Source: Promethearchaeota archaeon (lineage in GTDB: Archaea > Asgardarchaeota > Lokiarchaeia > Sigyniarchaeales > SOKP01). From it: 46,606 nucleotides of DNA. The stretch is from assembly GCA_016839705.1 (NCBI GenBank), contig JAEOTR010000033.1, positions 1-46,606 on the forward strand. Reading direction: 5' to 3'. Position numbers and translations under genes: made by a program. Shown one piece after another: positions 10,283 through 19,138 of this stretch (position 1 is its first letter; each line of letters begins with the position of its first letter). Below the pieces are notes generated by a model. That model saw only the letters and a list, made by a program, of their open reading frames with translations, was not told where the DNA came from and ran no database searches.

Positions 10283-10456
10283 ATCAGTTCACTACTTTTT
10301 TCTATTTTGTTATACTTGAATTGTTAATTCAATTCAATATTTACTTAGATAGCTAACTATATAAAATTTTAGAAATCTTTTAATATATTATTAATAGGTT
10401 TTAACTCTAAAGAGAAAAGACAATAAAAATTAGATTTTGTAATAAAATATTCATTG

Positions 10457-10523
10457 CCGAAGCCATTACACTATGGTTTGTCATCTTGCGACTAGTATTT
10501 TCTCACAAGATTCATCCCTTCGG
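10457..10523 (-). promoter_or_regulatory. SECIS element (eukaryote-like/lokiarchaeal type) in the 3' UTR of hdrA-mvhD
   Basis: Minus-strand RNA: CCGAAG GG AUGA AUCUUGUGA GAAAAUACUAG UCGCAAGAU GA CAAA CCAU AGUGUA AUGG CUUCGG. It has an AUGA/GA tandem sheared G.A core, a 9-bp upper helix, an AAAA-containing apical loop and a closing helix CCGAAG/CUUCGG. It starts 2 nt after the mvhD stop. Confidence 0.88.
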
Positions 10524-10524
10524 T

Positions 10525-10995
10525 TTATTTTTTCTTCTTATCCTCTGAGGCTCTTTTTTCTTGCTCAGATTTTAAATTTTCTTTAATAAGATTACTCCCT
10601 AAATCTGCGATTTCTTCTGATATTCTTATTGCTTCATTTTGGAACTTCTGACCTTCAGCAGCACTACAATTAAAAATCTGGACTCTTTCTGGTGAAATTC
10701 CAGTCGTTTTTAAAATCTCCTTGACATATTGTACGTTTCTTTCGGCAACTAAATTACCTGTTTCATAATCGCATTCTCCACGATATCAAGCCCCAAGAAC
10801 AACTCCATCAGCACCTTTTCCTATTGCTCGCATTATTAAAGAGGGGGTTACTCGTCCTGTACAGTTAATCCTCACTGGTCTAAATGTTGCAGGATATTGT
10901 GCTCGAATTGTGCCTGCCATATCTCCTGCACCGTATCCTCATTTCCAGCAAAGGAAAGCTAATATCTTTATATTCTCTACTGATTTGTTAGCCAT
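10525..10995 (-). CDS. mvhD: Hydrogenase iron-sulfur subunit MvhD/VhuD, selenoprotein with 2 Sec (156 aa); absent from the ORF track
   Basis: Manual translation: MANKSVENIKILAFLCWK-U-GYGAGDMAGTIRAQYP..RINCTGRV...GADGVVLGA-U-YRGECDYETGNL...ISPERV..FNCSAAEGQKF. TGA at 10939-10941 and 10786-10788 fall at conserved Cys positions. SD-like AAGGGGG upstream; stop TAA at 10525-10527. Confidence 0.95.
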
Positions 10996-11008
10996 TTTTT
11001 ATCCCCCT

Positions 11009-12991
11009 TTATAATTCTTCCAAGATTGCATCTATTTGTTTTTCATATTGAGGTTCTCTATAATACCTTAACGTGATTGCTTCTGATGGGCAATTTGCTA
11101 AACATGATCCACATCCCCTGCAAAGGATTTCATTCACTTCAGCACCATCATCCTGTACACTTATCGCATTATACGGACAATTCAGTTCACACAACCCACA
11201 TTTTGCACATTTTTCTTTGTCTTCAACAGCCGCCCGAATTAAGAGTATTCGATATTTATCTTTACCCATTAACCTGGCTAATGAAGATGCTGCAGCTCTT
11301 CCTTGAGCAATCGACTCTACAATTGATTTTGGTCCTTGACTTGCTCCAGCTAATGTGATTCCGGGAATTTTTGTATCGATCGGATTCAATCTAGCATGAA
11401 ATTCCTTAAAAAAGCCATCTTGACTCAATTCAAGTTTTAGGATTTTTTGGATGCTTTCAACACCTTTCGCCGGCACCATCGAAGCAGAGAGAACAACCAT
11501 ATCATATTCCAATTCCTTTAATCCACTTGAGCTCAATGTATTCTGCATAACAATCTTTAGGTTCTGAGTATCTGGATCTTCTTTTATCCTACTAATATTC
11601 GTTCTTATATATTTTATACCTTCCTTTCTAGAAGCTGTAAAATATTCTTCATAATCTTTTCCCGCAGCTCGCATATCCATGTAAGCAACCGTAATATCCG
11701 CATTAGGTGAGTGTTGTTTTATTAATTTTGAGTTTTTGATTGAAATCATGCAACATACTCCTGAGCTACAATAGGTATTCATTGTTAAATCTCTCGATCC
11801 TACACACTGGATAAATAGAATATTTTTTGGTACTTTACCATCAGAGGGTCGAACAAGGTGCCCGAGGGTAGGTCCATTTGGTGCAAGAATTCTTTCAAGT
11901 TTTAATTGTGTAATTACATTAGGATATTTATTGTATCCTAAGTATCCAGTAGGAGGTTCAAATTCATCCCAACCAGTTGCAACAACAATGGACCCTACTT
12001 TCAATTTTAGGATTTCATCTTTTTGATCAAAATCGATTGCATCTACTTCACATGCCGTCTTACAGAGCTCACATTTTATGCATCTATCCATGTCAATTTG
12101 AGCAAAAGCAGGAACAGCTTGTGCAAATGACGAATAAATAGCTTTTCTTGAATCTAATCCTTCATTGAATTCATTGTAACCATAAGCCGGGCATACTTCC
12201 CAACAGGCTCCACAACCGTTACAATCTTTATTTACATATCTCGCTTTTTTTCGAATGGTTACCGTAAAATTTCCTACAAATCCTTGTACATCTTCTACTT
12301 GACTATAAGTATATAAGTTAAGCCCTGGTGTTCTAGCTGATTGAAGCATAACGGGTCCTAATATTCATATACTGCAATCATCTGTAGGGAAAGTACGATC
12401 TAATTTTGCCATTTTGCCTCCTATTGTAGGTTGTGTCTCTACTAGATGTACTTCGAATCCTTCTTCTGCTAAGTCGATCCCTGCTGACAAACCTGCAACT
12501 CCTCCACCGATAATCAGAGCTTTTTTTGTTATATCAACTTCTTTGATTTGTATTATCTCTAACACCGCGGCTCTTGCTACGGCTGAACGAATGGCATCTT
12601 CAGCAACTCTTCGAGCACCCTCCATATCTTGTTTATGTACAAAACTTGAATGCTCACGTATATTAGCAAACTCTAAATATGATGCATCGATATTCATTGA
12701 TTCAAGTACGCTTTTAAAGACAGGTTCATGAGTTTTAGGAGTACACGAACCAACTACAAGTCTGTTCGCATTACTTTCAATCATCTTTTCTTTTATAAAT
12801 TCCGCTCCAGGTTCTGTTCATAAACTGATATAATCTAATGCCTCGACTACATTTGGAATAGTTTTTGAGAATTCTGCCAATTTTTTAGTGGCGATGATTT
12901 CTGCTATGTTTAAACCTCACTGACAAATAAATACAGCGATTCTTGGAACTTTTTCGTCGTCTTGAATAGTTTTTTCTTTAGTTTCTACCAT
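11009..12991 (-). CDS. hdrA: Heterodisulfide reductase subunit A, selenoprotein with 3 Sec (660 aa); split into fragments in the ORF track
   Basis: One frame from ATG 12991: RIAVFICQ-U-GLNI (TGA 12917-12919; cf. CHCG.NI), YISL-U-TEPG (12818-12820; cf. YMCSDPG), TFPTDDCSI-U-ILGP (12365-12367; cf. CSxCIL). Also FAD motif IIGGGVAG, QCVGSRD and two CxxCxxCxxxCP ferredoxin domains. Confidence 0.96.
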
Positions 12992-16133: not shown

Positions 16134-16781
16134 TTGTCTCAAGAACAGGTTTTTAAAACTATCATTGATTCTATCATTAATTTAGATGAAGAAAAAGCAA
16201 TAGAATTGGCCAGCAAAGCCATAAAAGAAAATTTGAATTTAGTTGATGTTATAGAAAAAGGGTATGCTGCAGGCATTCGAAGAGTGGGTGAACTATGGGA
16301 AGAGGGTGAATTTTTTCTGCCAGAATTAATGAGAGGGGCGCAAATTATGCAAAACTGTTTAGATTTAATTATTCCTCATCTTAAGAAAGGAGCAGAAGAA
16401 GTTTCAAAAGGTAAAGTAGTATTAGCTACAATAGAGGGAGACATTCATTCCATTGGAAAAACGATTGTTGGAACGATGTTGAGAGCGTATGGTTATGAAG
16501 TTTACGACTTAGGTGCCGATGTTCCAGCCGAGAAAATTGTTGATACCGCAATTGAAAAAAGTGCGAATATTATAGGAGTTTCAGCTTTATTAACGACTAC
16601 TATGTTTGGGCAAAAAAAAATAATTGATATCTTAAAGGAAAGGAATTTATTGGATAGGTTTAAAGTTATCTTAGGGGGAGCTCCCGTCACTAACGCATGG
16701 GTTGCTGAATGTAATGCTGATGGATTTGCCGAAAATGCTATAGATGCTGTAAAATTAGTTAGATCTTTATTAGAAAAATAA
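16134..16781 (+). CDS. Methyltransferase corrinoid (B12-binding) protein, MttC/MtbC family
   Basis: Cap domain VGELW..GEFFLPEL, B12 motif GDIHSIGK, SALLTTTM, GGAPV. TTG start after AGGAGAG. Confidence 0.95.
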   Translation: MSQEQVFKTIIDSIINLDEEKAIELASKAIKENLNLVDVIEKGYAAGIRRVGELWEEGEFFLPELMRGAQIMQNCLDLIIPHLKKGAEEVSKGKVVLATIEGDIHSIGKTIVGTMLRAYGYEVYDLGADVPAEKIVDTAIEKSANIIGVSALLTTTMFGQKKIIDILKERNLLDRFKVILGGAPVTNAWVAECNADGFAENAIDAVKLVRSLLEK

Positions 16782-16808
16782 TAAATTAATTATTGAGGTT
16801 TAAAATAT

Positions 16809-17687
16809 TTGAAATTTCAAGATTGGTTGAGGGATGATTCTAAAATTGTTTTATTCGATGGAGCAATGGGAACAGAATTAATTAAAAGAGGATTAGAACC
16901 CGGAAAGGTTCCAGATTTATTAAACATTGAAAATCCCGAAACCATAATCGAGATTCATAAATCCTATTATGATGCTGGTTCAGATATGTGCCAAACAAAC
17001 ACATTTGGTTCAACCCCATTAAATTTAAGACGATACAACCTTGAAGAGAGGATTGAAGACATAATAGGATGTGCTTTAGATAACATTCAAAAAGCTAATT
17101 CCTCTGGACGTTTAGTTGTTGGTGATATTGGACCAACTGGTGAATTTCGTCCTCCAGTAGGAGATGCTTCCAGTGAAGATTGGCATTCAAGTTTCAAAAT
17201 GCAGGCAAAATTATTGGAAAACGGAGTTAACCTCTACCATGTTGAAACTATTTCTGATCTTGAAGAAATCTTGACAGCAATCCGGGCAATTAAAGAAGTC
17301 TCAAGTAAACCAATTATTGCTTCCCTCACATATAAGAAGACAAAAAGAGGGTATTTCACAATCATGGGAGACTCATTAGAAAAATGTATTAGATCATTAG
17401 AAAGTGAAAATGTAGATGTAATTGGGGCAAATTGTACTATTGGATCAGGAGATATGCTAGATTTAGTTAAACAAGCTATTGATGTGACAAATGTCCCGAT
17501 TTCTGCAAAGCCTAATGCTGGACAACCTAGAGTAGAAGGTTTAAAGACTTTTTATGATCAACCAATTAAAGATTTTGTGAAGGATATCCAAGAAATGATA
17601 AATTTAGGAGTTAAAATAGTTGGTGGCTGCTGTGGTACATCCCCAATAACTATTAATGAAATTAGAAAAATAATAGATAAGATTTAG
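16809..17687 (+). CDS. Homocysteine S-methyltransferase domain protein (stand-alone MetH N-terminal module)
   Basis: Motifs DGAMGT, TNTFG, GDIGPTG, GANC, KPNAGQP and the Zn-binding GGCCGT. Confidence 0.94.
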   Translation: MKFQDWLRDDSKIVLFDGAMGTELIKRGLEPGKVPDLLNIENPETIIEIHKSYYDAGSDMCQTNTFGSTPLNLRRYNLEERIEDIIGCALDNIQKANSSGRLVVGDIGPTGEFRPPVGDASSEDWHSSFKMQAKLLENGVNLYHVETISDLEEILTAIRAIKEVSSKPIIASLTYKKTKRGYFTIMGDSLEKCIRSLESENVDVIGANCTIGSGDMLDLVKQAIDVTNVPISAKPNAGQPRVEGLKTFYDQPIKDFVKDIQEMINLGVKIVGGCCGTSPITINEIRKIIDKI

Positions 17688-17713
17688 ATTAGAAGGAAGG
17701 GTTTGAAATTTTT

Positions 17714-19138
17714 ATGGCGATATTAAGACCTAGGATTAACGTATTGGATGAAGAACACAAAGAACAAATATTAGAGGAAGCAAAAATTATATTAGAGACC
17801 CAAGGTATTTTCATTGAAAATCAAGAAGCGGTTGAATTATTTGATCAAAAAGGTTTAAATCATGAAGGTTTGCGGTATTTTTTTCCCCCAGATTTGATCA
17901 ATAAGTGCTTAGCTTCAGTCCCTTATGAAATCACTCTTTTCGATAGAGAGGGAAATGAATGTATTACATTAAAAGACAATGACGTTCATTTTGATCCTGG
18001 TTCCGCAGCCATTTTTATTCTTGATGAAAATACCAGAGAAATAAGAGAGGGCTTGTCAAAAGATTTTATCCGGTTCTCCAAAATCGTTGAACAATTAAAA
18101 TTTATTGAAGCACAAAGTACAGCTCTAATTTATCAAGATGTACCGAAAGAAGCTCAAGATTGGCATCGCCTATATTTAGCACTATCTAATTGTTATAAAC
18201 CGATAGTTACAGGAACATTTCGTAAAGAGAGTTTTTCTATTATGAAAGAAATTTTGCTAGCATGTAGAACATCAGAAGAGGATTTAGCTCGAAAACCACT
18301 GGCAATATTTGATGCTTGTCCTAGCCCTCCATTAAAATGGTCTGATCTTACAACACAATCACTTATTGATGCTGCAAAATCCATGATACCATCTGAATTT
18401 GTATCTATGCCATTAGCAGGGGCGAGTGCTCCAATTACTTTAATTGGCTCAATTACCCAACACTGTGCCGAGTGTCTTGCGGGAATTGTTATTGCTCAAT
18501 TAGCAAAAGAGGGTGCTCCATTAATTTGGGGAGGCTCTCCTGCGGTGTTTGATATGAAACATGGGACAACTCCAATGGGTGCAATTGAAACAATGATGAT
18601 TAACTTAGGAGATGTTGAGATGGGAAAATTTTTAAATCTCCCTACTCATGCCTATATGAGTTTAAGCGATTCTAAAATACCAGATGCTCAAGCGGGGTTT
18701 GAAGCAGGAATGGGAGCATTACTTGCAGGACTTGCGGGAGTTAATATGGTTTCTGGACCAGGGATGCTTGATTTTGAGTCTACTCAAAGTGTTGAAAAAC
18801 TAATAATTGATAATGAAATAGTAGGAATGGTAAAAAGATTAATTCGCGGTATTGAAGATTTTGGTACTCCTTTTGCTTCAGAAATATTGAAAGATTATGA
18901 AGATAAAGAAGAATTATTATCCCATCCATCAACTCTTAAATATTTTAGAAAGGAATTATTTCTTCCTAGTCAAATTATAGATAGAATGACAAGAGATTCA
19001 TGGAAGGAAAATGGTTCTAAATCAACAAGAAAAAGAGCATTAGATGTTGCTGAAAAGTTGTTACAAAAGCCTTCAATTAAACCTATTGATGGAAGCTTAG
19101 CGACAGAATTGGATAAGATTGCTGAAACGGCATTATAA
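17714..19138 (+). CDS. Trimethylamine methyltransferase (MttB) superfamily protein, non-pyrrolysine
   Basis: Motifs SPPLKW, MPLAGASAPITL.G, FDMKHG, SDSKIPDAQAGFE, GMLD, LIIDNEI. No in-frame TAG; TTA (Leu, 18662-18664) sits at the Pyl-equivalent position before SDSK. Confidence 0.93.
   Translation: MAILRPRINVLDEEHKEQILEEAKIILETQGIFIENQEAVELFDQKGLNHEGLRYFFPPDLINKCLASVPYEITLFDREGNECITLKDNDVHFDPGSAAIFILDENTREIREGLSKDFIRFSKIVEQLKFIEAQSTALIYQDVPKEAQDWHRLYLALSNCYKPIVTGTFRKESFSIMKEILLACRTSEEDLARKPLAIFDACPSPPLKWSDLTTQSLIDAAKSMIPSEFVSMPLAGASAPITLIGSITQHCAECLAGIVIAQLAKEGAPLIWGGSPAVFDMKHGTTPMGAIETMMINLGDVEMGKFLNLPTHAYMSLSDSKIPDAQAGFEAGMGALLAGLAGVNMVSGPGMLDFESTQSVEKLIIDNEIVGMVKRLIRGIEDFGTPFASEILKDYEDKEELLSHPSTLKYFRKELFLPSQIIDRMTRDSWKENGSKSTRKRALDVAEKLLQKPSIKPIDGSLATELDKIAETAL

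Follow-up and report, generated by a model that had tools for sequence, protein, structure and literature searches.

A predicted hdrA-vhuD selenoprotein operon with five in-frame UGA codons in a Lokiarchaeia-type Asgard archaeon

The minus strand of a 46,606-nucleotide stretch of Promethearchaeota DNA (contig JAEOTR010000033.1 of assembly GCA_016839705.1, hereafter the window) very probably carries a selenoprotein operon of two cistrons, hdrA and vhuD (mvhD), from a Lokiarchaeia-type Asgard archaeon, and the five UGA codons found in its two reading frames are almost certainly read as selenocysteine (Sec). This architecture has previously been reported from these archaea (Mariotti et al. 2016, PMC4989117; Huang et al. 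2024, PMC11227280). In the mechanism that we propose, archaeal SelB, as a SelB·GTP·Sec-tRNASec complex, would decode each of the five UGAs under the direction of one eukaryote-like kink-turn SECIS element located in the 3' untranslated region behind vhuD, which would have to bridge distances of 0.27 to 2.4 kb and reach beyond the boundary between the cistrons. The products would be the FAD/Fe-S electron-bifurcating subunit HdrA and the [2Fe-2S] adaptor VhuD.

An earlier sequence-only reading of this region had claimed that two apparently broken ORFs and an adjoining gap are two complete genes once five TGAs are read through, with no frameshift and no internal TAA or TAG. Under genetic code table 11, the region indeed displays one ORF of 139 aa (12365..12784) and one of 446 aa (11009..12349) on the minus strand, followed by about 725 bp (10283..11008) in which the longest ORF does not exceed 44 aa. 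When TGA is read as sense, a single 660-codon frame with exactly three in-frame TGAs and a single 156-codon frame with exactly two are obtained (Table 1). Neither contains a TAA, a TAG or a frameshift, and the claim thus holds in both of its parts. The two cistrons would be transcribed together, and the spacer between them is so short that a separate SECIS element does not fit there. It had also been anticipated that standard pipelines would take the locus for a pseudogene and miss mvhD altogether: in the public gene calls hdrA appears as two proteins of 446 and 139 aa, the pieces being named "4Fe-4S binding protein" and "FAD-dependent oxidoreductase" on this contig and in relatives, and no product was found there for the largest vhuD piece.

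Table 1. Coordinates of the predicted operon and of its recoding signals in the window
Feature	Position	Strand	Remarks
hdrA	11009..12991	-	660 codons, stop TAA; HdrA-type flavoprotein; full-length 5odc_A match
UGA-Sec codon 25 of hdrA (CQUG)	12917..12919	-	on Cys13 of 5odc_A; TGA in 79/79 orthologues
UGA-Sec codon 58 of hdrA (SLUTEPG)	12818..12820	-	on Cys46 of 5odc_A; TGA in 32, Cys codon in 48 orthologues
UGA-Sec codon 209 of hdrA (DDCSIUIL)	12365..12367	-	canonical HdrA Sec site; on Sec197 (X) of 9sfi_A and Cys197 of 5odc_A; TGA in 81/81
Intercistronic spacer	10996..11008	-	13 nt; GGGGGA ribosome-binding motif
mvhD/vhuD	10525..10995	-	156 codons, stop TAA; [2Fe-2S] electron-transfer subunit; Pfam FlpD, 5odc_D
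UGA-Sec codon 19 of vhuD (CWKUGYG)	10939..10941	-	on X (Sec) of 9sfi_K and Cys of 5odc_D; TGA in 76/77
UGA-Sec codon 70 of vhuD (GAUYRGEC)	10786..10788	-	on X (Sec) of 9sfi_K and Cys of 5odc_D; TGA in 77/77
lokiSECIS (Asgard type I eukaryote-like SECIS)	10457..10523	-	predicted from fold, covariation and covariance model R1

The two readthrough products match proteins of known structure from end to end, with identities of about 50%. Residues 15-657 of HdrA align collinearly with residues 3-650 of 5odc_A (E = 2e-199), and strong matches are also obtained with 9sfi_A (E = 2.9e-195) and 8rvu_a (E = 2e-184). The protein is laid out as an N-terminal Fe-S domain, a TrxR-like FAD domain and two ferredoxin domains, Pfam placing Pyr_redox_2 / NAD_binding_8 at 157-233 and Fer4 families at 255-316 and 589-641. 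VhuD covers positions 1-123 of the 123-position FlpD profile (PF02662; 139.8 bits for a gathering threshold of 22.3) and matches 5odc_D (E = 1.3e-31) and 9sfi_K (E = 2.4e-30). These matches exclude chance as the source of the readthrough frames. All five U positions fall on cysteines in 5odc, in agreement with the sequence-only reading, and in chains A and K of 9sfi the residues opposite U209, U19 and U70 are X (Sec).

On the other hand, HdrA scores below both NCBIfam equivalog cut-offs for methanogen HdrA, with 592.6 bits versus 1400 for one model and 759.5 bits versus 1100 for the HdrA2 model, which takes in a fused MvhD. As judged from its sequence, the 660-aa protein is thus a member of the HdrA family and not the methanogen equivalog. 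Since, in addition, mcrA was not found in this 93%-complete genome, a function as CoM-S-S-CoB reductase is not to be assumed.

We then compared the locus with its counterparts in independent Asgard MAGs of different studies, 80 orthologous loci that are 74-93% identical to it over the full length. Four of the five sites carry TGA in almost every orthologue, whereas at HdrA-58 TGA and Cys codons replace one another (Table 1), the tree requiring at least 7-10 switches. The order hdrA then vhuD is kept in 76/76 loci with enough DNA. The hdrA stop codon of the orthologues is TAG in 43 cases, TAA in 36 and TGA in none, as would follow from the model proposed in PMC4989117, in which any distant UGA is recoded by a SECIS lying downstream.

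One could wonder whether genuine recoding takes place inefficiently or under certain conditions, UGA 25 and UGA 58 acting for the most part as checkpoints that depend on selenium: complete HdrA would then be made only when selenium is plentiful, and Cys-only paralogues would be used otherwise. The genome does contain at least five more HdrA paralogues without TGA (contigs C18, C1 and C32), Methanococcus is known to exchange Sec and Cys isoenzymes with selenium supply (PMC11097638, PMC13518236), and Sec and Cys flip freely at site 58. However, the presence of TGA at site 25 in all 79 orthologues argues for a chemical role rather than for a dispensable checkpoint. We consider this possibility unlikely, and it would in any case be compatible with Sec insertion, to which it only adds regulation.

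Immediately behind vhuD, the minus strand can fold into a lokiSECIS, with an energy of -19.7 kcal/mol (z = -2.98). Its lower helix pairs CCGAAG (10523-10518) with CUUCGG (10462-10457), and its core is made of AUGA (10515-10512), which starts 9 nt past the vhuD TAA and lies directly 5' of the upper stem, and of GA (10482-10481) directly 3' of it. The upper stem contains 9 bp (10511-10503 with 10491-10483), all Watson-Crick or GU, and is capped by an A-rich apical loop of 11 nt that starts with adenines, GAAAAUACUAG (10502-10492). A side hairpin is formed by CCAU (10476-10473) and AUGG (10466-10463). This element does not figure in the sequence-only reading.

The same element is observed 3' of vhuD in 76/76 orthologous loci. 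A strict pattern requiring at least 8 of the 9 pairs gave 57 matches including that of the window itself, with an 11-nt loop in 51 of them; on inspection, 19 of the 20 loci that it missed contained this element too, with 7 of 9 pairs, and in the last one the contig ends inside the element. Over 75 sequences, the AUGA/GA core columns are invariant. All nine upper-stem pairs show compensatory changes on both sides. The covariation score is 0.528; shuffles give 0.215, slid partners do not exceed 0.154, and none of 500 shuffles reached the observed value. Covariance model R1 gives 78 bits to the lokiSECIS and no more than 17.5 bits to anything else in the window, in which a second SECIS was thus not detected. 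A gathering-threshold Rfam scan of the window did not find SECIS families either; its sole match, PYLIS_3, lies inside an intact mttB-like gene and was judged to be coding-sequence similarity. Since other elements are absent, we propose that the single 3' SECIS would serve both cistrons.

These data also bear on the possibility that the locus is a decayed pair of pseudogenes, in which the TGAs would be nonsense mutations and full-length protein would not be made. Public gene callers treat it in this way when they report fragments of 446 and 139 aa. However, decay would hardly produce five interruptions out of five that are TGA, none being a TAA, a TAG or a frameshift, nor place each of them on a Cys column; four of these sites moreover remain TGA in 76-81 independent orthologues with 74-93% identity, and a conserved and covarying SECIS lies downstream. 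This explanation is therefore highly improbable.

A search of the genome for the Sec machinery, as suggested in the sequence-only reading, recovered its proteins and a candidate tRNA. SepSecS (478.9 bits) and two selD genes, each with one TGA, score above their cut-offs. PSTK (146 bits, best PDB match 3adb) and a full-length archaeal SelB (best PDB match 4ac9, E = 1.5e-86) are below the NCBIfam equivalog cut-offs, whose models were trained on other lineages. A candidate tRNA-Sec is found where the ends of contigs C16 and C87 overlap. It reaches 40.4 bits with Rfam RF01852 (gathering 47) and displays a UCA anticodon, a 6-bp anticodon stem, a long variable arm and a 4-bp T stem, its D-arm region being unresolved; aragorn missed it, with or without introns. 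The tRNA-SeC called by aragorn on contig C18 has a weak acceptor stem with mismatches and many G-U pairs, and we did not rely on it. Further selenoprotein genes bearing a SECIS are present on contigs C81, C5, C13, C73 and C70. For a third Sec-containing hdrA-vhuD pair, on contig C3, model R1 did not find a SECIS; an AUGA is present there, with a perfect stem of only 6 bp.

The frames would likewise open if UGA coded throughout the genome for Trp, Gly, Cys or another standard amino acid instead of being recoded to Sec at specific sites. However, as the sequence-only reading had pointed out, TGA is a normal stop elsewhere: it terminates 7 of the 38 other long ORFs of the window, among them the LRR gene (2340) and pyrF (13633), and readthrough of the pyrF TGA adds 17 codons without any Pfam match. 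In-frame TGAs are also confined to known selenoprotein families with a SECIS behind, and the genome encodes a dedicated Sec pathway. We thus attribute a very small probability to reassignment. Finally, although the source is a MAG with 6.8% contamination, the TGAs cannot reasonably be taken for sequencing or assembly errors, the least probable explanation of all, since dozens of MAGs produced by different studies have identical codons at identical sites, the TGAs being conserved in up to 81 independent assemblies. Altogether, these results support the selenoprotein-operon interpretation of the sequence-only reading.

Concerning the function of the operon, HdrA and VhuD would most likely dock onto a VhuG-VhuA-VhuU [NiFeSe] hydrogenase and an HdrC-HdrB module, for which a vhuG-vhuA-vhuU-hdrC-hdrB cluster is found on contig C70. 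The resulting complex would be a flavin-based enzyme of the Mvh/Vhu-Hdr type, either bifurcating or confurcating.

A further hypothesis concerns the role of selenium in this complex. The [4Fe-4S] cluster A3 (or HA3) belongs to HdrA's mobile N-terminal domain, at the dimer interface, and acts as the gate to the low-potential branch of electron bifurcation. The chances appear even to us that the three Sec residues of HdrA share the coordination sphere of this one cluster. In the N-terminal domain, only four conserved Cys/Sec positions are available, namely C23, U25, U58 and C83, position 83 being itself Sec in four relatives. According to PMC9012536, which cites the 2017 crystal structure, Cys197, the equivalent of U209, ligates the N-terminal cluster of the partner protomer, and PMC13518236 describes at the Cys197-equivalent site a Sec-Cys pair between A3 and the FAD. 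If the remaining three ligands come from the N-terminal domain, U25, U58 or both would then have to ligate the cluster. PMC4989117, which is older than the 2017 structure, stated that the Sec sites of Loki proteins are not Fe-S ligands, whereas the later structural literature (PMC9012536) suggests that they can be. Should the hypothesis be true, it would reveal a natural Fe-S cluster with several selenolate ligands, contradict the 2016 statement and imply that a ligand position (58) has been toggled between Sec and Cys at least seven times. A BLASTP comparison of the HdrA N-terminal domain with VhuD (E = 0.056) places C23/U25, U58 and C83 opposite C16/U19, C45 and U70, an alignment that is suggestive, but no proof, of homology between the two.

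The discovery value of the locus is small, multi-Sec HdrA, two-Sec VhuD, their fixed tandem order and the shared SECIS being known from Lokiarchaeota since 2016 and from a 2024 catalogue covering Asgard archaea. The locus nevertheless offers a clean natural test case, both for the way in which one 3' SECIS could, without SBP2, serve five UGAs in two cistrons over a distance of 2.4 kb, and for the role of selenium at an Fe-S cluster gating electron bifurcation. To our knowledge, lokiSECIS-driven Sec insertion has not been demonstrated experimentally in any Asgard archaeon. Since public calls split hdrA, intact Hdr/Mvh modules would also be undercounted in metabolic reconstructions of Asgard archaea.

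The closest known systems are the HdrA-VhuD tandem selenoprotein genes of Lokiarchaeota with one shared lokiSECIS (PMC4989117), which the sequence-only reading had accurately mentioned as multi-Sec versions. They have in common with the present locus the gene order, a very short spacer, a multi-Sec HdrA always including a site near residue 200, a two-Sec VhuD, a sole SECIS behind vhuD (AUGA, 9-bp stem, 11-nt A-rich loop, GA) and an hdrA stop that is never UGA. We see no essential difference between them, the locus having 3+2 Sec where the published maximum for one pair is up to 6. The Asgard hdrA-frhD clusters with type I eSECIS-like elements, reported together with a table of 1439 selenoprotein sequences (PMC11227280), are similar in family, synteny and SECIS type, and the AUGA_AA core variants described there are also present in this genome, in the SECIS copies of contig C81 and of vhuU. 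The complex of Methanococcus maripaludis (9sfi) displays the same domain architecture and shares the three Sec sites U209, U19 and U70. However, methanococcal HdrA has one Sec, versus three here, and the methanococcal genes use archaeal-type SECIS elements, versus a lokiSECIS here. M. maripaludis is moreover a methanogen whose substrate is known, while mcrA was not found in the present genome. Finally, MvhAGD-HdrABC from Methanothermococcus thermolithotrophicus (5ODC) provides the best overall match for HdrA, with Cys at all of the Sec sites and neither selenocysteine nor SECIS.

Read with the standard code, the minus strand from 10525 to 12991 yields ORFs of 139 (12365..12784) and 446 amino acids (11009..12349), and after the latter come about 725 bp in which no ORF is longer than 44 amino acids. 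When TGA was read through, the region resolved into two complete genes, with exactly the coordinates and the five in-frame TGAs that the sequence-only reading had proposed. Neither readthrough frame contains an internal TAA or TAG or a frameshift, as it had also stated. The 13-nt spacer between the genes contains the ribosome-binding motif GGGGGA. A code-wide reassignment of UGA is ruled out, since TGA terminates 7 of the 38 other long ORFs in the window, including the LRR gene and pyrF, for which an ordinary TGA stop had been claimed. The public gene calls for this contig break hdrA into proteins of 446 and 139 amino acids, and the practical value of the finding thus lies in the right annotation.

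Selenoprotein features of the window and of its source genome (C, contigs of this genome; L, DNA loci examined; U, Sec)
Feature	Position	Strand	Description
hdrA	12991..11009	-	660 codons, U at 25, 58, 209; stop TAA (TGA read through)
mvhD/vhuD	10995..10525	-	156 codons, U at 19, 70; stop TAA (TGA read through)
lokiSECIS AUGA	10515-10512	-	9 nt past vhuD TAA
lokiSECIS stem	10511-10503 with 10491-10483	-	9 bp, follows AUGA
lokiSECIS apical loop		-	11 nt, GAAAAUACUAG
lokiSECIS GA	10482-10481	-	3' of stem
lokiSECIS 3' side hairpin	10476-10463	-	
Second Sec hdrA-vhuD pair	C81		2+2 UGA, AUGA_AA core
Third Sec hdrA-vhuD pair	C3:1944-4374 (L115)	-	hdrA 3 TGA, vhuD 2 TGA; SECIS divergent
selD	C5		
Prx-like protein	C13		
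Sec-Sec protein	C73:86871-87357 (L102 1109-1595)		132-codon ORF, two adjacent in-frame TGAs, HADUUADV
vhuU	C70		49 codons, Sec in DCULSCAAH
vhuG-vhuA-vhuU-hdrC-hdrB cluster	C70:35950-38950 (L122 3635-7954)	-	

The 660-codon product matched solved HdrA end to end (5odc_A, E 2e-199, residues 15-657 against 3-650), with further matches to 9sfi_A (2.9e-195) and 8rvu_a (2e-184), and has the FAD-binding and ferredoxin domains that an HdrA should have. The 156-codon product is MvhD/VhuD (Pfam FlpD, 139.8 bits, cut-off 22.3; 5odc_D, E 1.3e-31). The claim that the TGAs occupy Cys positions was borne out by the printed alignments: HdrA U25, U58 and U209 each lie opposite a Cys in the Methanothermococcus enzyme, an all-Cys version, U209 also stands opposite the X of 9sfi_A (DDCSIUIL in the window, DDCAMXIL in 9sfi_A), and VhuD U19 and U70 face both X residues of 9sfi_K. 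X in the 9sfi chains denotes the Sec positions of the published Methanococcus maripaludis Hdr-Vhu-Fwd assembly, in which Sec197 is modelled (PMC13518236).

Relatives were collected by a scan keeping one genome per species, which gave 210, and the best 80 were retained. All 80 are Asgard MAGs, labelled Promethearchaeota with a few Hod-, Thor-, Hermod- and Odinarchaeota, at 74-93% identity over the full length, and vhuD lies directly downstream of hdrA at 76/76 loci with enough DNA. Among these best 80 of 210, TGA is the only codon found at HdrA-25 (79/79), HdrA-209 (81/81) and VhuD-70 (77/77), and occupies VhuD-19 in 76 of 77 cases (one other codon). HdrA-58 is TGA in 32 and a Cys codon in 48, and HdrA-83, a Cys in the window, is TGA in 4 relatives. 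Such conservation across orthologues rules out chance, decay and error as the origin of the TGAs; the recurrence at the same sites in the relatives' MAGs also disposes of assembly errors. On a FastTree phylogeny of 81 HdrA proteins, HdrA-58 (window 12818-12820; orthologous loci L019-L098) requires about 10 switches between Sec and Cys, of which well-supported branches force at least 7, and HdrA-25 and HdrA-209 require none among these close orthologues. HdrA-58 is a natural Sec/Cys swap series at a probable Fe-S ligand position.

The SECIS behind vhuD has an MFE of -19.7 kcal/mol (z = -2.98). A strict pattern recovered the same element in 56 relatives; among the 20 others, 19 carry it with 7/9 pairs and in one the contig ends inside the element. 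In an alignment of 75 sequences, all nine stem pairs show two-sided changes, and the covariation score was 0.528 against 0.215 in shuffles (0/500 reach it) and at most 0.154 with the partners slid. A covariance model made from these 75 sequences found one SECIS in the window at 78 bits, a score that holds by construction because this element is part of the model's own alignment; the missing second match is informative. The runner-up reached 17.5 bits and no other match exceeded it, which argues against a separate signal for hdrA. A lower helix, CCGA(AG)/(CU)UCGG, closes the element in 70/75 MFE folds and the third pair of the side hairpin covaries (AU 35, UA 20, UG 9, CG 3), so that stem, lower helix and side hairpin give a three-armed shape at this locus. 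The lower helix CCGA/UCGG of the element (which spans window 10457-10523, minus strand) is near-invariant, and many relatives have it overlapping the final codons of vhuD (..AAA CCG AAU AG); RNA signal and C-terminal coding sequence are therefore jointly constrained.

The search for Sec machinery suggested earlier was positive. The source genome (3.36 Mb, 97 contigs, 31% GC, 93% complete, 6.8% contaminated) encodes SepSecS (478.9 bits, above cut-off), two tandem selD genes with one in-frame TGA each, a PSTK that is closest, among solved structures, to those of the M. jannaschii enzyme, and a 472-aa GTPase whose nearest solved relative is the archaeal SelB 4ac9 (E 1.5e-86, full length). The acceptor stem of the tRNA-SeC that aragorn called on C18 is poor. 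There is a better candidate between selB and SepSecS, where the ends of C16 and C87 overlap: its anticodon is UCA, its anticodon stem has 6 bp and its T stem 4 bp, its variable arm is long, and an acceptor stem of 9 bp is possible. Its score of 40.4 bits is below the gathering score of Rfam (47), and it shows no clear D-arm. Since the two contig ends (C16:22980-23079, C87:137400-137555) are the same sequence, selB, the candidate and SepSecS are probably neighbours. Some 35-40 extra nt separate the possible acceptor 5' strand (GGCCCUUGA) from the anticodon arm and could be an intron, placed unlike that of the published Loki tRNA-Sec, which reportedly sits in the T-loop.

The SECIS model and homology searches revealed further selenoprotein genes in the same genome (see table). 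The C3 HdrA is 51% identical to that of the window; behind its vhuD the covariance model found no SECIS, the sequence there offering AUGA and a 6-bp perfect stem only. The C73 ORF matches no Pfam family, and its stop is overlapped by a SECIS of 41 bits (E 1.7e-5). A second, degenerate SECIS-like copy, whose core reads UUGA, follows 1.8 kb downstream (C73:89112-89189). The UGA stop of vhuU doubles as the last three bases of AUGA in its own SECIS. This element, with a loop of 13 nt and AA as its 3' core, was missed by the covariance model.

The C70 cluster encodes, in one direction, the hydrogenase small subunit, the [NiFe] large subunit, vhuU, hdrC and hdrB, and lacks hdrA and vhuD. The window pair is thus one of three Sec-containing HdrA-VhuD modules, any of which could supply what is missing for a bifurcating or confurcating Vhu-Hdr complex. 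A search of this 93% complete genome found no mcrA, and the window HdrA falls below the NCBIfam methanogen HdrA cut-offs. The protein would work like HdrA, but the identity of its disulfide substrate should not be presumed. Elsewhere in the window (16134-19138, plus strand), genes for a corrinoid (B12-binding) protein, a homocysteine S-methyltransferase-family protein and an MttB-family methyltransferase stand in a row, probably a non-Pyl MttB-type module for methylamine or betaine demethylation. The sole Rfam match of the window, PYLIS_3 (18662-18761, 50.2 bits), falls inside the mttB-like gene (17714..19138, plus strand); it probably reflects coding similarity. This gene is uninterrupted and free of in-frame TAG, and aragorn found no tRNA-Pyl.

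According to the account of the 2017 crystal structure in Chadwick et al., the ligands of the N-terminal [4Fe-4S] cluster are N-domain cysteines and Cys197 of the other protomer (PMC9012536); in the 2026 cryo-EM structure, Sec197 and a Cys form a pair that lies between cluster A3 and the FAD (PMC13518236). The N-terminal domain of the window HdrA has exactly four Cys/Sec residues, C23, U25, U58 and C83, the sole N-domain positions that are Cys in both 5odc_A and 9sfi_A, and C23 is invariant in the 81-protein set (best 80 of 210 relatives). If three of these four are ligands, U25 and/or U58 would ligate the cluster, and all three HdrA Sec may converge on one [4Fe-4S] cluster. We infer this convergence, the sole point slightly past the published accounts consulted, and it is contrary to Mariotti et al., who stated before the structure that the Loki Sec sites are not cluster ligands (PMC4989117).

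In other respects the system agrees with what has been described. The window element shares with the published lokiSECIS its AUGA, 9-bp stem, 11-nt loop and location solely behind vhuD (PMC4989117). Mariotti et al. predicted that a distant SECIS recodes all upstream UGA, but not one directly adjacent (PMC4989117); accordingly, among the best 80 of 210 relatives, hdrA never stops at TGA (TAG 43, TAA 36), whereas vhuD does in 17 genes. Altogether, the hdrA-vhuD selenoprotein finding is real and its first interpretation right, including the statement that multi-Sec versions are known in Lokiarchaeota: the window pair is a further instance of an already published system (PMC4989117, PMC11227280).
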